From positions 1 to 8,307 of the IMG/VR virus record IMGVR_UViG_2690315922_000019: 8,307 nucleotides of DNA. One strand, 5' to 3'. The stretch comes from a virus (taxonomy: Duplodnaviria; Heunggongvirae; Uroviricota; Caudoviricetes). How positions within the stretch are numbered: position 1 is the first letter of the stretch; the number at the start of each line of letters is the position of its first letter. Of the stretch, positions 1 to 5,951 are shown piece after piece. Made by a program: the position numbers and the translations under genes. Below the pieces are notes generated by a model. It did no database searches and was not told the origin of the DNA. It was given only the letters and a program-made list of their open reading frames with translations.

Positions 1-59
1 TTAAAATTCCATTTGTATTTGATCAGAACGCTCGGTCTTGCACACCGGGCGTTTTTTAT
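1..59 (+). ncRNA. Candidate 3' end of an OOP-like antisense RNA overlapping the 3' end of cII; its start and promoter lie outside the window
   Basis: Plus-strand hairpin cgctcggt (29-36) / loop cttgcac / accgggcg (44-51) followed by the T-run ttttttat (52-59), antisense to the cII 3' end. In lambda the OOP RNA terminates inside the cII 3' end with a similar GGGCG-T6 terminator. Partial feature. Confidence 0.4.
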
Positions 60-300
60 TGGTGATTCCATCAAGCGCATACTTAAAAGCCCTGCTAATC
101 GGACTGATGTCTGATGCCATTCCGAAAGCACACAAGACCGAAGCAATAAACCTCCAGTCCGTTCTGCTTATCTTCGATTCATGACAGCCAATCATCTTTG
201 CCAGACCGCGCTGTGTAAGCGTTGACAGGTTGATGAGTAAATCTGTTTCTGCGCGATCAACGTCACGCTGTGATAGTTTGCTGTAACTTGTTTGTTCCAT
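1..300 (-). CDS. cII: cII-like transcriptional activator (99 aa)
   Basis: Complete minus-strand ORF (start codon at 298-300, stop at 1-3). The C-terminus ITNKKRPVCKTERSDQIQMEF closely resembles the lambda CII C-terminus (…ILTNKKRP…TERSEQIQMEF) as I recall it. The N-terminal half is diverged. It sits downstream of cro and nutR, as in lambda. Confidence 0.85.
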   Translation of the reverse strand: MEQTSYSKLSQRDVDRAETDLLINLSTLTQRGLAKMIGCHESKISRTDWRFIASVLCAFGMASDISPISRAFKYALDGITNKKRPVCKTERSDQIQMEF

Positions 301-310
301 TTCTTACTAT
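278..310 (+). promoter_or_regulatory. Candidate PRE-like CII-activated promoter (direct repeat TTGC-N6-TTGT flanking a -35 region, -10-like TACTAT)
   Basis: ttgc (278-281), tgtaac (282-287), ttgt (288-291), then a 17-bp spacer and tactat (305-310). This is on the strand opposite to cII, straddles the cII start codon and points toward cro/cI, matching the lambda PRE arrangement (TTGC-N6-TTGC). Confidence 0.4.
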
Positions 311-364
311 TTCCATAGGTAAATAATCACTAATACCCATCTTTCGATGAGTGCTTAATTAGTT

Positions 365-399
365 ACCGCGTTGTCGGCGGTGCAGATTGATAAAGAGCG
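365..399 (-). promoter_or_regulatory. nutR-like N-utilisation site: boxA (CGCTCTTTA) and a boxB-like hairpin
   Basis: Read on the minus strand: CGCTCTTTATCAA (plus 387-399) immediately downstream of the cro stop, a 9-nt spacer, then the hairpin ACCGC-CGACAAC-GCGGT (plus 365-381). The boxA-boxB spacing equals that of nutL. Confidence 0.55.
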
Positions 400-409
400 G
401 ATCCGCTTA

Positions 410-625
410 TTAAGCGGCTTTGTGTTCCGGCGGGAACACGTCATCAAGACTGACTTTTGCGCCTAACTTGTTTAGGCACGCAACAAGAGCACGGCATGTT
501 TTAAGGTCTGGGAAGCGACGACCAGATTCCCAATGTCCGATAGCTCCCTGTGTGCATCCAACTGCCTTAGCAAGTGTTGTTTGAGAGATATTCAGTGACT
601 CTCGATATTTTCGTAGGTTGCTCAT
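410..625 (-). CDS. cro: Cro-like HTH repressor (71 aa, XRE family)
   Basis: Minus-strand ORF MSNLRKYRESLNISQTTLAKAVGCTQGAIGHWESG…KAA with a GGAGGG ribosome-binding site just upstream of the ATG at 623-625. It is divergent from cI. The HTH recognition helix (TQGAIGHW) is nearly identical to that of the adjacent cI (TQGGIGHW). The 128-aa ORF in the track is an upstream in-frame extension lacking a ribosome-binding site. Confidence 0.75.
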   Translation of the reverse strand: MSNLRKYRESLNISQTTLAKAVGCTQGAIGHWESGRRFPDLKTCRALVACLNKLGAKVSLDDVFPPEHKAA

Positions 626-736
626 ATGCCCTCCATAGTAACCATGAAGCAATAATACGATATGTACTTTTGGAATGCAAATAAAAAATACATCTTGTGC
701 ATGGATGGTTTTAGTACAGAGCGTAATAATAAGGAT
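626..736. promoter_or_regulatory. Divergent OR-type operator/promoter region (PR for cro leftward, PRM for cI rightward)
   Basis: 111-bp AT-rich intergenic region between the divergent cro and cI starts. On the minus strand there is a candidate PR with -35 TTGCAT (plus 675-680), a 17-bp spacer and -10 TATTAT (plus 652-657). Dyad motifs TAC-N5-GTA occur at 655-668 and 713-727. Confidence 0.5.
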
Positions 737-1396
737 ATGAAAATGAAATGGTATGAACTGGCTAGATCCAGAATGAAAGAGCTCGGCATAACTCAAGAGA
801 AGTTAGCTGAAGAGCTTGGTATGACGCAGGGTGGAATTGGTCACTGGTTGCGCGGATCTCGTCATCCATCTCTTGACGAGATTGGTGTGGTGTTTAAATA
901 CCTTGGTATTGATAACGTCTCATTCAACCACGACGGTACATTTTCACCTGTTGGCGAATACTCATCTGCCCCCGTTAAAAAACAATATGAGTACCCTGTT
1001 TTTTCTCATGTTCAGGCCGGGATGTTCTCGCCTGAGCTTAGAACCTTTACCAAAGGTGATGCGGAGAGATGGGTAAGCACAACCAAAAAAGCCAGTGATT
1101 GTGCATTCTGGCTTGAAGTTGAAGGTAATTCCATGACCGCACCAACAGGCTACAAGCCAAGCTTCCCTGACGGGATGTTAATTCTGGTTGACCCTGAGCA
1201 GGCTGTCGAGCCAGGTGATTTCTGCATAGCCAGACTTGGGGGTGATGAGTTTACCTTCAAGAAACTGATCAGGGATAGCGGTCAGGTGTTCCTACAACCA
1301 CTAAACCCGCAATATCCAATGATCCCATGCAATGATAGCTGTTCCGTAGTAGGGAAAGTTATCGCCAGCCAGTGGCCTGAAGAGACATTTAGTTAA
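737..1396 (+). CDS. cI: CI-type prophage repressor; LexA/S24-like autocleaving C-terminal domain with a non-lambda N-terminal HTH
   Basis: The C-terminal ~150 aa ([21 protein letters not shown]…GNSM…FKKL…ASQWPEETF) is near-identical to the lambda CI C-terminal domain as I recall it, including the Ala-Gly cleavage site and the Ser/Lys catalytic dyad context. The N-terminus ([37 protein letters not shown]…) is an XRE-type HTH unlike lambda CI. The start is at ATG 737 or 743, after the aagga ribosome-binding site at 731-735; the ORF in the track starting at 662 is an extension. Confidence 0.9.
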
Positions 1397-1427
1397 CAGC
1401 CTCACCACTCTAAAACACACAACAATA

Positions 1428-1457
1428 ACCCGACCTTAGCGTCGGGTTTTCTTTTTC
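1428..1457 (+). terminator. Rho-independent terminator downstream of cI
   Basis: Stem cccgac (1429-1434) / loop cttagc / gtcggg (1441-1446) followed by ttttcttttt. Confidence 0.55.
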
Positions 1458-1521
1458 CAAAATATAAATCAATAAAATACAAAGTGTTATAAAAAACCAA
1501 CCACATTTAGAACATTTTGTA

Positions 1522-1550
1522 TTGACTCAATAAAGTACACATCGTACTAT
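1522..1550 (+). promoter_or_regulatory. Candidate PL promoter with an overlapping OL-type operator dyad
   Basis: TTGACT (1522-1527), a 17-bp spacer, then TACTAT (1545-1550). The dyad AGTAC-N5-GTACT (1534-1548) overlaps the spacer and -10. It lies about 45 bp upstream of nutL. Confidence 0.45.
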
Positions 1551-1596
1551 TTAGCCATCAGCAGGAAGCTGGAAGCCAAAAGGAACAGATTGGCAG

Positions 1597-1630
1597 GCTC
1601 TTTAACTTCGATGGGGCGCTGACAAAGCGC
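1597..1630 (+). promoter_or_regulatory. nutL: boxA (GCTCTTTAAC) plus a P22-type boxB (GCGCTGACAAAGCGC)
   Basis: gctctttaac at 1597-1606, a 9-nt spacer, then gcgct-gacaa-agcgc at 1616-1630, which is the P22-type boxB hairpin with a GACAA pentaloop. It sits between the candidate PL and N. Confidence 0.7.
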
Positions 1631-1749
1631 GAACAGATACCAAACGAGATGGGTTTGGCGGTGATGTGAATTGCAGCTGCAACGACAGCAACCAGAAGAT
1701 CAGCATCTGGCGCATCACCACCAAAGCCATTTCACATGAGGAAAACATC

Positions 1750-2085
1750 ATGACGGTAATCGTGTACGGAAAATCAACATTTGCAGGAAATGCCAAAACT
1801 CGCCGTCATGAGCGGCGCAGAAAGCTGGCTATCGAGCGTGATGCCATCTGCAACATCATTGATTCTATCTTCGGCACAGACAGTGAGGAGCCTGTTCAGG
1901 AAGAGCCGAGAAAGCGTTTAAGTCTTTCTGAAAAAGCGATATCACTCGGAAGCCTTCGCTGCAAGAAGGCAGAAGAAGTCGAGAGTAAACAGAATCGTAT
2001 TTACTACAGCAAGCCACGCAGTGAAATGGGTGTGACTTGTGTTGGTCGCCAGAAAATGAAATTAGGCAGCAAACCACTTATTTGA
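1750..2085 (+). CDS. N: N antiterminator (111 aa), with a P22-type arginine-rich motif and a lambda-like C-terminus
   Basis: MTVIVYGKSTFAGNAKTRRHERRRKLAIERD… matches the P22 N (gene 24) arginine-rich boxB-binding motif as I recall it. The C-terminus …YYSKPRSEMGVTCVGRQKMKLGSKPLI resembles the lambda N C-terminus (…WYSKPGERGITCSGRQKIKGKSIPLI). A gagga ribosome-binding site lies at 1738-1742. The ORF in the track starting at 1666 is an upstream extension. Confidence 0.85.
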   Translation: MTVIVYGKSTFAGNAKTRRHERRRKLAIERDAICNIIDSIFGTDSEEPVQEEPRKRLSLSEKAISLGSLRCKKAEEVESKQNRIYYSKPRSEMGVTCVGRQKMKLGSKPLI

Positions 2086-2093
2086 GGTGATAT

Positions 2094-2543
2094 ATGGAAG
2101 AACAAGCAAACAAGATTCTCGTAGAACTACTGCAAAAAGCCAGCAATGGAATAGACGCGGCTGTTTCATTTAGCCAGGCACAGATTCCTGATGTTGTTCA
2201 TCAGTTGCTAATATGGAATATGGTTGACAGTCTGATTAAAACATTAATAGCCATTCTAACAATCCCACTGGTTTTCTGGTTTATGAAGAAGCAGTGCCAA
2301 AGAGTTGAGACAGGTAAAATCGGTGATGAAGGATATTCATGGGAGAAGGGAAAACCCAAATACAGGCCGACAATGGTTTGGGATAGCAAAGGTGATATTA
2401 ATCTTCTTATCATGCCATTGGTTGGAGTTTTGACTCTGTGGGGGATTTATATTATTGGTGCAGTAACCAATATGACTTGGTTAAAAATTTGGCTTGCCCC
2501 AAAGCTTTACCTTATCGAATATGCAGCATCATTGGTTAAGTAA
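2094..2543 (+). CDS. Small two-helix membrane protein (149 aa); possible superinfection-exclusion (SieB-like) function, by position only
   Basis: ORF with a gaggtg ribosome-binding site 4 nt before the ATG, immediately after the N stop with no intervening terminator. Two hydrophobic segments (LIKTLIAILTIPLVFWFM and INLLIMPLVGVLTLWGIYIIGAV). It occupies the slot between N and cIII where lambda and P22 carry sieB and ral. I do not recognise the sequence itself. Confidence 0.6.
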   Translation: MEEQANKILVELLQKASNGIDAAVSFSQAQIPDVVHQLLIWNMVDSLIKTLIAILTIPLVFWFMKKQCQRVETGKIGDEGYSWEKGKPKYRPTMVWDSKGDINLLIMPLVGVLTLWGIYIIGAVTNMTWLKIWLAPKLYLIEYAASLVK

Positions 2544-2547
2544 TTTC

Positions 2548-2575
2548 AGGCCGCATAGTCGGCCTTTATTTTTGG
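2548..2575 (+). terminator. Rho-independent terminator after the membrane-protein gene
   Basis: Stem aggccg (2548-2553) / loop catagt / cggcct (2560-2565) followed by ttatttttgg. Confidence 0.6.
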
Positions 2576-2692
2576 CATAAACAACAGAATAAACACTGCA
2601 CTGTGTATTCATTCCAACGAGTGAATACACGGAGCAATGTCGCTCGTAACTAAACAGGAGCCGACTTGTTCTGATTATTGGAAATCTTCTTT

Positions 2693-2720
2693 GCCCTCTA
2701 ATGTGAGGGCGATTTTTTAT
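2693..2720 (+). terminator. Second rho-independent terminator (tL2-like cluster)
   Basis: Stem gccctc (2693-2698) / loop taatgt / gagggc (2705-2710) followed by gattttttat. Confidence 0.6.
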
Positions 2721-2738
2721 CTGTGAGGGTATGAATAG

Positions 2739-3107
2739 ATGTCAAACATCAAAAAATACATCATTGATTACGACTGGAAAGCATCAATAGAAATTGAAAT
2801 CGACCATGACGTAATGACAGAGGAAAAACTTCACCAGATTAATAATTTCTGGTCAGACTCTGAATACCGACTCAATAAACACGACTCTGTATTAAATGCT
2901 GTATTAATCATGCTGGCGCAACATGCTCTGCTTATAGCAATTTCAAGCGACTTAAATGCATATGGTGTTGTGTGTGAGTTCGACTGGAATGATGGAAATG
3001 GTCAGGAAGGATGGCCTCCAATGGATGGTAGCGAAGGAATAAGAATTACCGATATCGATACATCAGGAATATTTGATTCAGATGATATGGCTATCAAGGC
3101 CGCCTGA
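2739..3107 (+). CDS. Highly acidic 122-aa protein; possibly the counterpart of lambda Ea10 (by position and size), function unknown
   Basis: ORF with a gaggg ribosome-binding site 9 nt upstream. By my count it has 23 Asp+Glu against 8 Lys+Arg, with an acidic C-terminal tail (DIDTSGIFDSDDMAIKAA). It lies immediately upstream of cIII, as ea10 does in lambda. Confidence 0.65.
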   Translation: MSNIKKYIIDYDWKASIEIEIDHDVMTEEKLHQINNFWSDSEYRLNKHDSVLNAVLIMLAQHALLIAISSDLNAYGVVCEFDWNDGNGQEGWPPMDGSEGIRITDIDTSGIFDSDDMAIKAA

Positions 3108-3179
3108 GTGCGGCGTTACCGCATACCAATAACGCTTCACTCGAGGCGTTTTTCGTTATGTATAAATAAGGAGCACACC

Positions 3180-3320
3180 ATGCAATATGCCATTGCAGGG
3201 TGGCCTGTTGCTGGCTGCCCTTCCGAATCTTTACTTGAACGAATCACCCGTAAATTACGTGACGGATGGAAACGCCTTATCGACATACTTAATCAGCCAG
3301 GAGTCCCCAAAAATGGATAA
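3180..3320 (+). CDS. cIII: CIII, inhibitor of FtsH-mediated CII degradation (46 aa here; 54 aa in lambda as I recall)
   Basis: [46 protein letters not shown] matches lambda CIII as I recall it. An aaggag ribosome-binding site lies at 3168-3173. A TAA stop at 3318-3320 ends the protein 8 codons earlier than in lambda. The ORF in the track starting at 3108 is an extension. Confidence 0.85.
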   Translation: MQYAIAGWPVAGCPSESLLERITRKLRDGWKRLIDILNQPGVPKNG

Positions 3321-3456
3321 AAAACTTATGGCTATCCAGACAAAATTCACTATTGCCACTTTTATTGGCGATGAAAAGATGTTTCGTGAGGCCGTCGACG
3401 CTTATAAAAAATGGATATTAATACTGAAACTGAGATCAAGCAAAAGCATTCACTAA
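3313..3456 (+). CDS. kil: Kil (47 aa), host cell-division (FtsZ) inhibitor
   Basis: [47 protein letters not shown]. It overlaps the cIII 3' end and the first 46 nt of gam, reproducing the lambda cIII/kil/gam overlap geometry. The ORF in the track starting at 3187 is an extension. Confidence 0.8.
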
Positions 3457-3827
3457 CCCCCTTTCCTGTTTTCCTAATCAGCCCGGCATTTCGCGGGCGA
3501 TATTTTCACAGCTATTTCAGGAGTTCGGCCATGAACGCTTATTACATTCAGGATCGTCTTGAGGCTCAGAGCTGGGCGCGTCACTACCAGCAGATAGCCC
3601 GTGAAGAGAAAGAGGCAGAACTGGCAGACGACATGGAAAAAGGCCTGCCCCAGCACCTGTTTGAATCGCTATGCATCGATCATTTGCAACGCCACGGGGC
3701 CAGCAAAAAAGCCATTACCCGTGCGTTTGATGACGATGTTGAGTTTCAGGAGCGCATGGCAGAACATATCCGGTACATGGTTGAAACCATTGCTCACCAT
3801 CAGGCTGATATTGATTCAGAGGTATAA
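3411..3827 (+). CDS. gam: Gam (138 aa), RecBCD inhibitor
   Basis: [61 protein letters not shown]… is near-identical to lambda Gam as I recall it. The internal Met at 3531 corresponds to the short GamS form. Confidence 0.95.
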
Positions 3828-3832
3828 AACGG

Positions 3833-4618
3833 ATGAGTACAGCACTCGCAACGCTGGCAGGGAAGCTGGCTGAACGTGTCGGCATGGATTCTGTCGACCC
3901 ACAGGAACTGATCACCACTCTTCGCCAGACGGCATTTAAAGGTGATGCCAGCGATGCGCAGTTCATCGCATTGCTGATCGTCGCCAACCAGTACGGCCTT
4001 AATCCGTGGACGAAAGAAATTTACGCCTTTCCTGATAAGCAGAACGGCATCGTTCCGGTGGTGGGCGTCGATGGCTGGTCCCGCATCATCAATGAAAACC
4101 AGCAGTTTGATGGCATGGACTTTGAGCAGGACAATGAATCCTGCACATGCCGGATTTACCGCAAGGACCGTAATCATCCGATCTGCGTTACCGAGTGGAT
4201 GGATGAATGCCGCCGCGAACCATTCAAAACCCGCGAAGGCAGAGAAATTACGGGGCCGTGGCAGTCGCATCCCAAACGGATGTTACGGCATAAAGCCATG
4301 ATTCAGTGTGCCCGTCTGGCCTTCGGATTCGCGGGTATCTATGACAAGGATGAAGCCGAGCGCATTGTCGAAAATACCGCATACACTGCAGAACGTCAGC
4401 CGGAACGCGACATCACTCCGGTTAACGATGAAACCATGCAGGAGATTAACACTCTGCTGATTGCCCTGGACAAAACATGGGATGACGACTTATTGCCGCT
4501 CTGTTCCCAGATATTTCGCCGCGACATTCGCGCATCGTCAGAACTGACACAGGCCGAAGCAGTGAAAGCTCTTGGATTCCTGAAACAGAAAGCCTCTGAA
4601 CAGAAGGTGGCTGCATGA
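3833..4618 (+). CDS. bet: Bet (Red-beta, 261 aa), single-strand annealing recombinase
   Basis: [66 protein letters not shown]… matches lambda Bet. It starts 5 nt after the gam stop. Confidence 0.95.
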
Positions 4619-5295
4619 CACCGGACATTATCCTGCAGCGTACCGGGATCGACGTGAGAGCTGTCGAACAGGGGGATGATGCGTGGCACAAATTACGGCT
4701 CGGCGTCATCACCGCTTCAGAAGTTCACAATGTGATAGCAAAACCCCGCTCCGGAAAGAAATGGCCTGACATGAAAATGTCCTACTTCCACACCCTGCTT
4801 GCTGAGGTTTGCACCGGTGTGGCTCCGGAAGTTAACGCTAAGGCGCTGGCCTGGGGAAAACAGTACGAGAACGACGCCAGAGCCCTCTTTGAGTTCACTT
4901 CCGGCGTTAATGTTACTGAATCCCCGATCATCTATCGCGACGAAAGTATGCGCACCGCCTGCTCTCCCGATGGTTTATGCAGTGACGGCAACGGCCTTGA
5001 GCTGAAATGCCCGTTTACCTCCCGGGATTTCATGAAGTTCCGGCTCGGTGGTTTCGAGGCCATAAAATCGGCTTACATGGCCCAGGTGCAGTACAGCATG
5101 TGGGTGACGCGAAAAGATGCCTGGTACTTTGCCAACTATGACCCGCGAATGAAGCGTGAAGGCCTGCATTATGTCGTGGTTGCGCGGGATGAAAAGTACA
5201 TGGCGAGTTTTGACGAGATGGTGCCGGAGTTCATCGAAAAAATGGACGAGGCACTGGCTGAAATTGGTTTTGTATTTGGGGAGCAATGGCAATGA
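4615..5295 (+). CDS. exo: Exo (Red-alpha, 226 aa), 5'-3' dsDNA exonuclease
   Basis: [65 protein letters not shown]… matches lambda Exo. Its ATG overlaps the bet stop (ATGA). Confidence 0.95.
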
Positions 5296-5474
5296 AGCAT
5301 CCTCACGATAATATCCGGGTAGGCACGATCACTTTCGTCTACTCCGTTACAAAGCGAGGCTGGGTATTTCCCGGCCTTTCTGTTATCAGAAATCCACTGA
5401 AAGCACAGCGGCTGGCTGAGGAGATAAATAATAAACGGGGGGCTGTATGCACAAAGCATCTCCTGTTGAGTTAA
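5286..5474 (+). CDS. Small protein in the lambda orf60a position (62 aa), function unknown
   Basis: ORF overlapping the exo stop by 10 nt, in the slot immediately after exo where lambda has orf60a. Assignment is by position and size; I cannot confirm sequence identity from memory. Confidence 0.65.
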
Positions 5475-5638
5475 GAACGAGTATCGAGATGGCACATAGC
5501 CTCGCTCAAATTGGAGTCAGGTTTGTGCCAATACCAGTAGAAACAGACGAAGAATTTCATACGTTAGCCACATCCCTTTCACAAAAGCTGGAAATGATGG
5601 TGGCGAAAGCAGAAGCAGATGAGAGAGACCAGGTATGA
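5447..5638 (+). CDS. Small protein in the lambda orf63 position (63 aa), function unknown
   Basis: ORF overlapping the preceding gene by 28 nt. Its size and position correspond to lambda orf63. Confidence 0.65.
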   Translation: MHKASPVELRTSIEMAHSLAQIGVRFVPIPVETDEEFHTLATSLSQKLEMMVAKAEADERDQV

Positions 5639-5714
5639 CAACCACTGAATGCACTCTTCTGGCAGCGGGCTTCATATTCTGTGTGCTTATGCTTGCCGAT
5701 ATGGGACTTGTTCA

Positions 5715-5930
5715 ATGACACCTCAGCAGGAAAACGCCCTTCGCAGCATTGCCCGTCAGGCTAATTCTGAAATCAAAAAAGCCAGACAGCAGTTTCCGGA
5801 TAAAAACGTCGATGACATTTGCCGTAGCGTACTGAAGAAGCACCGCGAAACGGTAACGCTGATGGGATTCACACCGACTCATTTAAGTCTGGCGATCGGC
5901 ATGTTAAACGGCGTCTTTAAGGAGCGATGA
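5715..5930 (+). CDS. Small protein in the lambda orf61 position (71 aa from MTPQQ…), function unknown
   Basis: MTPQQENALRSIARQANSEIKKARQQFPDKN…. The ORF in the track starting at 5649 is an N-terminal extension. An ATG at 5715 is preceded by an ATGA-coupled micro-ORF (see findings). Confidence 0.6.
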   Translation: MTPQQENALRSIARQANSEIKKARQQFPDKNVDDICRSVLKKHRETVTLMGFTPTHLSLAIGMLNGVFKER

Positions 5931-5951
5931 ACATGAAAAGCAAAATCATCA

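Follow-up and report, generated by a model that had tools for sequence, protein, structure and literature searches.

A mosaic CI repressor and a VT2-Sakai-like immunity cassette in a lambdoid prophage beside icd

Here we describe the immunity region of a lambdoid prophage carried on the viral record IMGVR_UViG_2690315922_000019, of which positions 1 to 8,307 make up the window analysed here (the whole stretch of 8,307 nucleotides, to which all coordinates refer). The window is the early-left arm of the prophage, in reversed orientation relative to the lambda map, and the elements in question are the repressor gene cI, the divergent lytic repressor gene cro, and two groups of putative operators, OR between the two genes and OL beyond the far end of cI. 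Together, and with a probability that we put at about 90%, they form an intact lambdoid lysis/lysogeny switch of the VT2-Sakai type. An initial annotation of the same DNA had described a hybrid module, in which a lambda-type C-terminal domain is joined to a different DNA-binding domain, and had concluded that it defines an immunity specificity other than that of lambda. The observation is real but ordinary: the reading of the mechanism is right, and the novelty that it implied is wrong. By sequence comparison the specificity is indeed distinct from lambda, but it is not newly defined here, since the cassette is of an already known immunity type, shared by VT2-Sakai, the Shiga toxin 2 (Stx2) phage II, the Stx1 phage AP005153, 1717 and Nil2.

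The repressor gene and the parts of its product are laid out as follows.

737..1396, plus strand: cI, 219 aa from the ATG at 737 or 217 aa from the ATG at 743, with the stop codon at 1394-1396
791-847, plus strand: helix-turn-helix (HTH) of CI
1016-1021, plus strand: Ala-Gly cleavage site of CI (VQAGMF, A94-G95)
1124-1135, plus strand: catalytic Ser of CI, in GNSM, aligning with lambda S149
1256-1267, plus strand: catalytic Lys of CI, in FKKL, aligning with lambda K192

Because homologues start with MK(MK)W, we place the start of cI at the ATG at 737 or at 743, the latter with an AAGGA 8 nt on its 5′ side, and not at the mechanical start of the open reading frame (ORF) at 662. The exact protein read from 737 is absent from the protein collection, where gene callers start at the equivalents of 701 (231 aa) or 743 (217 aa), so that this absence says nothing about how rare the protein is. 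Pfam recognizes an HTH_3 domain (E = 8e-11) and a Peptidase_S24 domain (E = 9e-29) in CI, and in a phmmer search residues 11-218 align to the lambda repressor 3bdn (E = 1e-95), with 8gmu also matched. An N-terminal HTH, a C-terminal Peptidase_S24 domain, the Ala-Gly site and the Ser/Lys dyad are thus all present, as in the LexA/CI family of self-cleaving S24 repressors.

The two halves of this protein compare with lambda CI in very different ways. From YEYPVF (residue 84, window position 986) to the C terminus, which takes in the hinge and the C-terminal domain, 132 of 136 residues are identical (97%), just as the initial annotation had claimed for the C-terminal domain, and the DNA at 986-1390 matches lambda 37637-37233 at 94.8% nucleotide identity. 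On the 5′ side of 986, nucleotide similarity to lambda is undetectable. Residues 1-83 are only 19% identical (19 of 101 alignment columns), rising to 40% across the HTH, and the domain is without the N-terminal arm of lambda CI; it is therefore not lambda-like after all. The claim of a different HTH stands in so far as the specificity residues differ, but by its sequence the domain is of the same HTH_3 fold family as that of the lambda repressor. The Gln that opens helix 3 is conserved between the two repressors, and the positions of E34 and D38 in the acidic patch of lambda CI are both occupied by Glu. These comparisons support the view that CI is a mosaic, whose joint would lie in the inter-domain linker about 10 codons upstream of the Ala-Gly site.

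An abrupt change of nucleotide identity at 986 in a draft assembly could also suggest that the lambda-like half is an assembly chimera of two co-resident prophages. The same joint occurs, however, in about 60 complete phage genomes, several of which are classical records, and in four independent assemblies, and we consider a chimera scarcely credible. One residue of the mosaic repressor stands out within the C-terminal domain: residue 139 (1151-1153) is Tyr, in PTGYKPS, where lambda (S156) and the phages Dewey, phi458 and the Stx phages discussed below have Ser. The Tyr allele is present in the four independent assemblies, and it lies near the equivalents of lambda P158 and S159, which we take to be sites of dimerisation and cooperativity mutants.

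The second protein of the switch is encoded on the opposite strand.

410..625, minus strand: cro, 71 aa, an all-helical lytic repressor of the HTH_3 (XRE) type

Pfam matches Cro to HTH_3 (E = 4e-12), the only other models matched being HTH_31, HTH_19 and HTH_92. It has no alignable similarity to lambda Cro, which is of a different fold type. A place in the lambda/P22 Cro lineage was considered and ruled out, as only generic HTH_3-type models match and the nearest protein in the window is the N-terminal domain of its own CI. With that domain it shares 35% identity overall (BLASTP E = 8e-13) and, as the initial annotation had noticed, an almost identical recognition helix: TQGGIGHW in CI (aa 30-37, 824-847) against TQGAIGHW in Cro (aa 25-32, 553-530), 7 of 8 residues being the same. 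This supports the view that Cro is a paralogue of the N-terminal HTH_3 domain of CI. Across seven related phages the helix-3 sequences of CI and Cro co-vary, their identity averaging 5.1/8 within a phage and 2.8/8 between phages. The Cro sequence is found in exact copies on at least 1000 contigs. Its best match among solved structures is 28tn_A, an 82-aa 'lambda repressor-like protein' (E = 4.5e-17, residues 1-69), with HigA and P22 C2 N-terminal domains next in rank, so the structure of a close homologue of this type of Cro may already be available.

If CI and Cro read the same DNA through nearly the same helix, then shared sites are expected on both sides of cI, and candidates for these were found together with the promoters that they would control.

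626-736: OR region, the cro-cI intergenic region
653..669: OR1, TAATACGATATGTACTT, motif on both strands, 15/17 to VT2-Sa OR1, 90% inverted repeat with OL1, overlapping the −10 and spacer of PR
686..702: OR2, AAATACATCTTGTGCAT, 15/17 to VT2-Sa OR2, with a putative operator of AP005153 at the equivalent place, adjoining the −35 of PRM
712..728: OR3, TAGTACAGAGCGTAATA, 16/17 to VT2-Sa OR3, overlapping PRM (repeat analysis and motif)
1475..1491: OL3, AAATACAAAGTGTTATA, 15/17 to VT2-Sa OL3 (repeat analysis and motif)
1508..1524: OL2, TAGAACATTTTGTATTG, 15/17 to VT2-Sa OL2 (repeat analysis and motif)
1533..1549: OL1, AAGTACACATCGTACTA, 16/17 to VT2-Sa OL1, between the −35 and −10 of PL
652..681, minus strand: PR, the cro-cII promoter, TTTGCA-18-TATTAT or TTGCAT-17-TATTAT (consensus scan)
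702..736, plus strand: PRM, the putative promoter of cI maintenance, with a −10 of TAATAA/ATAATA at about 724-731 (read from the sequence)
1522..1550, plus strand: PL, promoter of N and the leftward operon, TTGACT-17-TACTAT (promoter scan)
1427..1448, plus strand: intrinsic terminator of the cI transcript, a hairpin followed by a T-run (terminator scan)

Repeat analysis pairs 651-670 with 1532-1551, 713-733 with both 1476-1496 and 1534-1554, and 1476-1493 with 1506-1523. The 12 half-sites of the six 17-bp sites yield the consensus W-A-R-T-A-C-A on either side of a central base, in which the A at +5 and the C at +6 are invariant (12/12) and the A at +2 is kept in 11/12. Searching the window for RTACRNNNYGTWNT with at most one mismatch returned 15 matches, against 4.6 ± 2.3 expected and a count that none of 200 shuffles reached; 11 of the 15, including every exact one, fall in the six sites of the two intergenic regions that flank cI. 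For comparison we took the VT2-Sa operator sequences from Table S1 of PMC10742460: each of the six sites agrees with its listed counterpart at 15 or 16 of 17 positions. In the record of the Stx1 phage AP005153, putative operators are annotated at the places of the OR sites. Because the sites cluster in this way and match both the published VT2-Sa lists and the AP005153 annotation, the assignment has support independent of the motif. Two of the three pairings between Cro helix and half-site described in PMC6649833 fit as well, Gln H1 with the A at +2 and, in Cro, Ala H3 with the A at +5.

A lambda-type operator, TATCACCGC with up to three mismatches, occurs nowhere within 626-736 or 1450-1560, and the three matches elsewhere in the window are at chance level; the RTACRNNNYGTWNT-type motif is in turn absent from lambda OL and OR. 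Lambda likewise has three operators on each side, but its half-site is TATCACCG as opposed to WARTACA, and its centre-to-centre spacings are 24/23 bp (OR) and 24/20 bp (OL), compared with 33 bp for OR1-OR2, 26 bp for OR2-OR3, 25 bp for OL1-OL2 and 33 bp for OL2-OL3 here. Two features of the arrangement are shared with lambda, namely an OR2 that adjoins the −35 of PRM, its centre about 43 bp upstream of the ATG at 737, and an inferred transcript start at the ATG of cI. PR stands at the position of the 'putative major rightward promoter' of AP005153, and PRM matches its 'putative maintenance promoter for CI'; a simple promoter scan did not detect PRM.

Beyond the stop codon of cI, the initial annotation had seen no rexA or rexB and had noted that the gene is followed directly by its terminator and PL, and this order is confirmed (1427-1448, then 1522-1550). 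The hairpin of the terminator folds at −12.4 kcal/mol (z = −4.5) and is homologous to that of the lambda cI operon: 1419-1454 matches positions 35834-35799 of lambda, a block formed by the end of rexB and the bases immediately 3′ of it, which we take as the region of the lambda immunity-operon terminator. Only 28 bp separate the lambda-homologous blocks 986-1390 and 1419-1454, against about 1.4 kb in lambda; so short a gap beside a retained 1419-1454 means that rexAB is exactly absent and that the terminator beyond it was kept. The accessory slot between the stop codon of cI and the terminator (1397-1426) is empty in this prophage and in Dewey, holds rexA-rexB in lambda and a 1047-nt ORF of unassigned function in phi458, and is occupied by orf22 and others in VT2-Sakai.

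The comparison of the CI N-terminal domain and of Cro with phage repressors, which the initial annotation had proposed, did yield the immunity type. A megablast of 300-1700 matched 168 phage records. The cro, OR and cI segment (392-1396) is 93.5% identical in 1717, YYZ-2008, Nil2, AP005153, Stx2 phage II, 2851 and the PA series. For the N-terminal domain of CI alone, 63 phage records reach 95% identity or more. In VT2-Sakai (Sp5), Stx2-II, AP005153, 1717, Nil2, YYZ-2008 and 2851 the order cII-cro-OR-cI is the same as here. VT2-Sakai, the Stx1 phage, 1717, 2851, the PA phages and phi458 all have exactly this Cro protein (100% identity). Against the CI of the Stx phages, identity is 96.4% in the N-terminal domain, where the recognition helix is unchanged, and 96.3% in the C-terminal domain. 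This combination has been described before: Smith et al. 2012 (PMC3430580) assigned the repressor to type cI2c and the Cro to type cro4, stated that a lambda-like C terminus goes with an unlike N terminus, and inferred different DNA binding. The Stx phages differ in having extra ORFs between cI and OL, where this prophage has none, and in the OR intergenic region, which over 626-736 is 85.6% identical, with 1-2 substitutions per operator and a 1-bp difference (an indel) in the spacing of OR1 and OR2. The flanking genes are at 93-99% (cro 98.6%, the 5′ half of cI 93-98%), so divergence has been greater in the regulatory DNA than in the proteins that bind it.

Closer relatives are found outside the Stx phages. 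About 97% nucleotide identity extends over 410-1569 in Dewey, Louie and vB_EcoP-720R6/683R2 and over 410-1390 in phi458; the CI of Dewey differs by 1 residue and that of phi458 by 2, and the terminator and OL/PL of Dewey are also at about 97%. Dewey and Louie have the virion backbone of a P22-like podovirus (PMC11990801), whereas the cassette here is flanked by lambda-like red genes and a P22-type N. Both are viable temperate phages that form turbid plaques (PMC11990801), and the cassette therefore works in nature.

Several points nevertheless weigh against reading the region as an intact switch of VT2-Sakai type. The motif RTACRNNNYGTWNT was derived from the very sites that it then finds, and its enrichment statistic is partly circular; the operators of AP005153 are 'putative' in that record, and no footprinting of the VT2-Sakai immunity type was found in the literature. 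The 33-bp spacings of OR1-OR2 and OL2-OL3 contrast with 24 and 20 bp in lambda, and pairwise cooperativity between OR1 and OR2 cannot be assumed. Finally, the Tyr at the lambda S156 position replaces a Ser found in lambda and in every relative compared.

That same unique substitution could point to a cassette in decay, a remnant of a cryptic prophage whose cI is non-functional, as is the case in the VT2-Sakai reference, where we saw directly that an in-frame stop takes the place of the Gln codon of TQGG, the nonsense codon that is also noted in PMC3430580. The source contig, moreover, extends only 63 bp past the end of cII, which leaves the remainder of the prophage out of view. We nevertheless hold decay to be improbable: cI here is intact, as are the frames of cro, cII and N, the HTH and the Ala-Gly, Ser and Lys motifs are all present, four independent assemblies agree at every base of 410-1600, and a single residue separates CI from the CI of Dewey, a viable temperate phage.

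The relation to lambda is less straightforward than the low identity of the N-terminal domains might suggest. The cassette does not belong to lambda immunity, for the N-terminal domain is at 19%, Cro is unalignable, OR and OL have no lambda operators and rexA-rexB is missing. A module could still be lambda-immune or cross-immune without having a separate specificity, if its CI represses lambda or the reverse, through operator similarity or mixed oligomers. Fattah et al. 2000, in the summary that PMC10742460 gives of that work, described high C-terminal and low N-terminal homology between the CI proteins of VT2-Sa and lambda and reported cross-immunity between the two phages. Apparent KD values of 3.7-6.4 µM have also been measured for lambda CI on all six VT2-Sa operators (PMC10742460), the half-sites share the A at +2, the A at +5 and the C at +6 with lambda TATCACCG, the first Gln of helix 3 is conserved, and with C-terminal domains that are 97% identical heterodimers are plausible. 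This binding is weak, though, when set beside 0.2-3.1 µM on its own operators, and about 10-fold or more weaker than on lambda OR1 and OL1 (PMC10742460). The N-terminal domain has no lambda arm, Cro is unrelated to lambda Cro, neither phage has operators of the other's type at OR or OL, and Smith et al. 2012 (PMC3430580) inferred different DNA binding. Heterodimers would be expected to weaken repression, and the cross-immunity report comes at second hand through PMC10742460 for a phage whose reference cI has a nonsense codon. On balance we think it unlikely that the module lacks a specificity of its own. By sequence that specificity is distinct from lambda, but to the question whether a lysogen is immune to lambda the published answer may already be partly positive.

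Other lambdoid immunities help to place the cassette. Phage 21 immunity (imm21) was ruled out, as its CI is 36% identical over 188 aa and the alignment of the two Cro proteins covers 20 residues only; the Cro of phage 21 is annotated as P22-Cro-like. Phage 434 has, as here, a small HTH_3 Cro paralogous to the CI N-terminal domain, a near-identical helix and shared, 2-fold symmetric operators, and its cro has been described as a displaced duplicate of the DNA-binding domain of cI (PMC6649833). The proteins and operators of 434 have no close relation to those here, however, and 434 was not listed in phage and PDB searches with CI or Cro. In Salmonella phage SEN22 helix 3 of CI is TQGAIGHW, the helix that Cro has here, its Cro is 69% identical, and the same operator motif occurs at OL and OR with an OR spacing of 26 and 34 bp, yet its C-terminal domain is 44% identical and of a non-lambda type. 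This motif and geometry beside an unrelated C-terminal domain indicate that the geometry travels with the DNA-binding module.

How the repressors, operators and promoters would work together can be proposed by analogy, and we infer operator occupancy, promoter control, cleavage and cooperativity from the observed anatomy, the homologies, and the operator motif and its clustering. A self-cleaving LexA/S24 CI would read the three OR (653-728) and three OL (1475-1549) sites through its N-terminal HTH_3 domain. As in lambda and 434, dimers of CI on OR1/OR2 and OL1/OL2 would repress PR and PL, CI at OR2 would activate PRM through the retained acidic patch, and CI at OR3 would switch PRM off, giving negative autoregulation. 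Activation of PRM is expected because OR2 adjoins its −35 as in lambda and because the equivalents of E34 and D38 are acidic. The −10-like TAATAA/ATAATA at 724-731 would place the start of the PRM transcript at or beside the ATG at 737, which suggests a leaderless cI mRNA as in lambda, while the ATG at 743 with its AAGGA could serve transcripts derived from PRE. Cro would compete for the same six sites with another order of preference and so lead to lytic growth. Since the hinge and C-terminal domain are near-identical to those of lambda and keep the cleavage site (Ala-Gly) and the catalytic dyad (Ser/Lys), the repressor is expected to dimerise, to bind cooperatively in pairs, to form loops between OL and OR and to undergo RecA-stimulated self-cleavage as lambda CI does; the loop would be shorter, since with the rex slot empty the distance from OL to OR is about 0.8 kb, compared with 2.4 kb in lambda. 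A lambda C-terminal domain working on OR1 and OR2 at 33 bp would imply cooperativity in a geometry that lambda does not use.

As to the origin of the mosaic, recombination in the linker may have joined a specificity module, made up of the N-terminal domain, Cro and the operators, to a lambda-type C-terminal domain. In SPN9CC and Pm34 the same N-terminal family is joined to C-terminal domains of the lambda type (78% and 63% identity), and together with SEN22 these combinations point to N-terminal domain, Cro and operators as the mobile unit, with a C-terminal domain that can be swapped at the linker. Since divergent lineages pair this N-terminal family with a lambda-type C-terminal domain, lambda CI is no less likely to be the recombinant than the CI described here.

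The remainder of the window continues the mosaic pattern on both sides of the cassette.

300-1, minus strand: cII (Pfam Phage_CII)
1750-2085: N, downstream of nutL
2094-2543, plus strand: ORF of 149 aa with function unassigned (phrog_3054), with hydrophobic stretches and no Pfam match on record
2555-6240: lambda-like block, ea10 to orf61
6029-6250, plus strand: DksA/TraR-type C4 zinc-finger gene (phrog_54, Pfam zf-dskA_traR)
7165-8307: int, with Arm-DNA-bind_1 and Phage_integrase domains

The initial annotation had spoken of an otherwise lambda-like early region, which is true of 2555-6240, at 97.3% nucleotide identity, and of nothing else in the early region: N and nutL are of the P22 type, and in cII, xis and int nucleotide similarity to lambda is confined to 61 bases at the 3′ end of cII. 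N is 70.7% identical over 75 aa to P22 N against 56% to phage 21 N, and is closer to P22 than to lambda. The boxB-L hairpin, GCGCTGACAAAGCGC at 1616-1630, is preceded by a boxA-like GCTCTTTAAC (region 1596-1630), and we take it to be the boxB of P22 nutL. With an N nearer to P22 and a boxB-L of P22 type, the antitermination module would have a third origin, separate from those of the immunity region and the red region. The 149-aa ORF, which could be an exclusion or membrane moron, immediately follows N in the same direction, at the location of lambda ral/orf28. An Rfam search matched the Lambda_thermo cIII thermoregulator element at 3167-3225 (plus strand, 88.5 bits, E = 4e-21), within the 97% lambda-like block, and returned no match on 1-2500. 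Lambda homology stops at the DksA/TraR-type gene (6029-6250; lambda 30402, beside ea22). The far end of the window then runs from the zinc-finger gene through two small ORFs, one of them a DUF4222, to xis and int, which ends at 8307. Within the cassette itself a minus-strand ORF at 622-789 and a plus-strand ORF at 831-1076 ('ORF b65' in AP005153) were treated as spurious.

The end of int lies about 110 bp from icd (isocitrate dehydrogenase), which locates the prophage at the icd locus, where phage 21 and e14 also integrate. The window corresponds, base for base, to positions 64-8370 of contig BBVO01000015.1 in assembly GCA_001514765.1. An exact copy of the N protein is annotated as Escherichia albertii, and the host genome is probably of this species. 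Among complete E. coli genomes no match of at least 99% covers most of the window, the best having 88% coverage at 96.7% identity.

As a discovery this carries little weight, for the mosaic CI, Cro and operators are in the literature and in dozens of phages, the Stx2 prophage of O157:H7 Sakai among them. Its use lies in annotation, where it places an icd-adjacent prophage in the VT2-Sakai immunity group, and this assignment predicts which Stx and P22-like phages the lysogen should exclude. Given the 97% identity to lambda CI in the hinge and C-terminal domain, there is some slight chance that in doubly lysogenic cells CI might dimerise with a lambda-immunity CI, or join it in cooperative and looping assemblies. 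If it did, two nominally heteroimmune prophages would be coupled in their stability and induction, and this could underlie the reported 'cross-immunity' of VT2-Sa and lambda. The cassette is a natural example of the site after cI as a slot for accessory genes, a known principle, and of specificity, in the form of N-terminal domain, Cro and operators, recombining at the linker independently of the domain for oligomerisation and cleavage.

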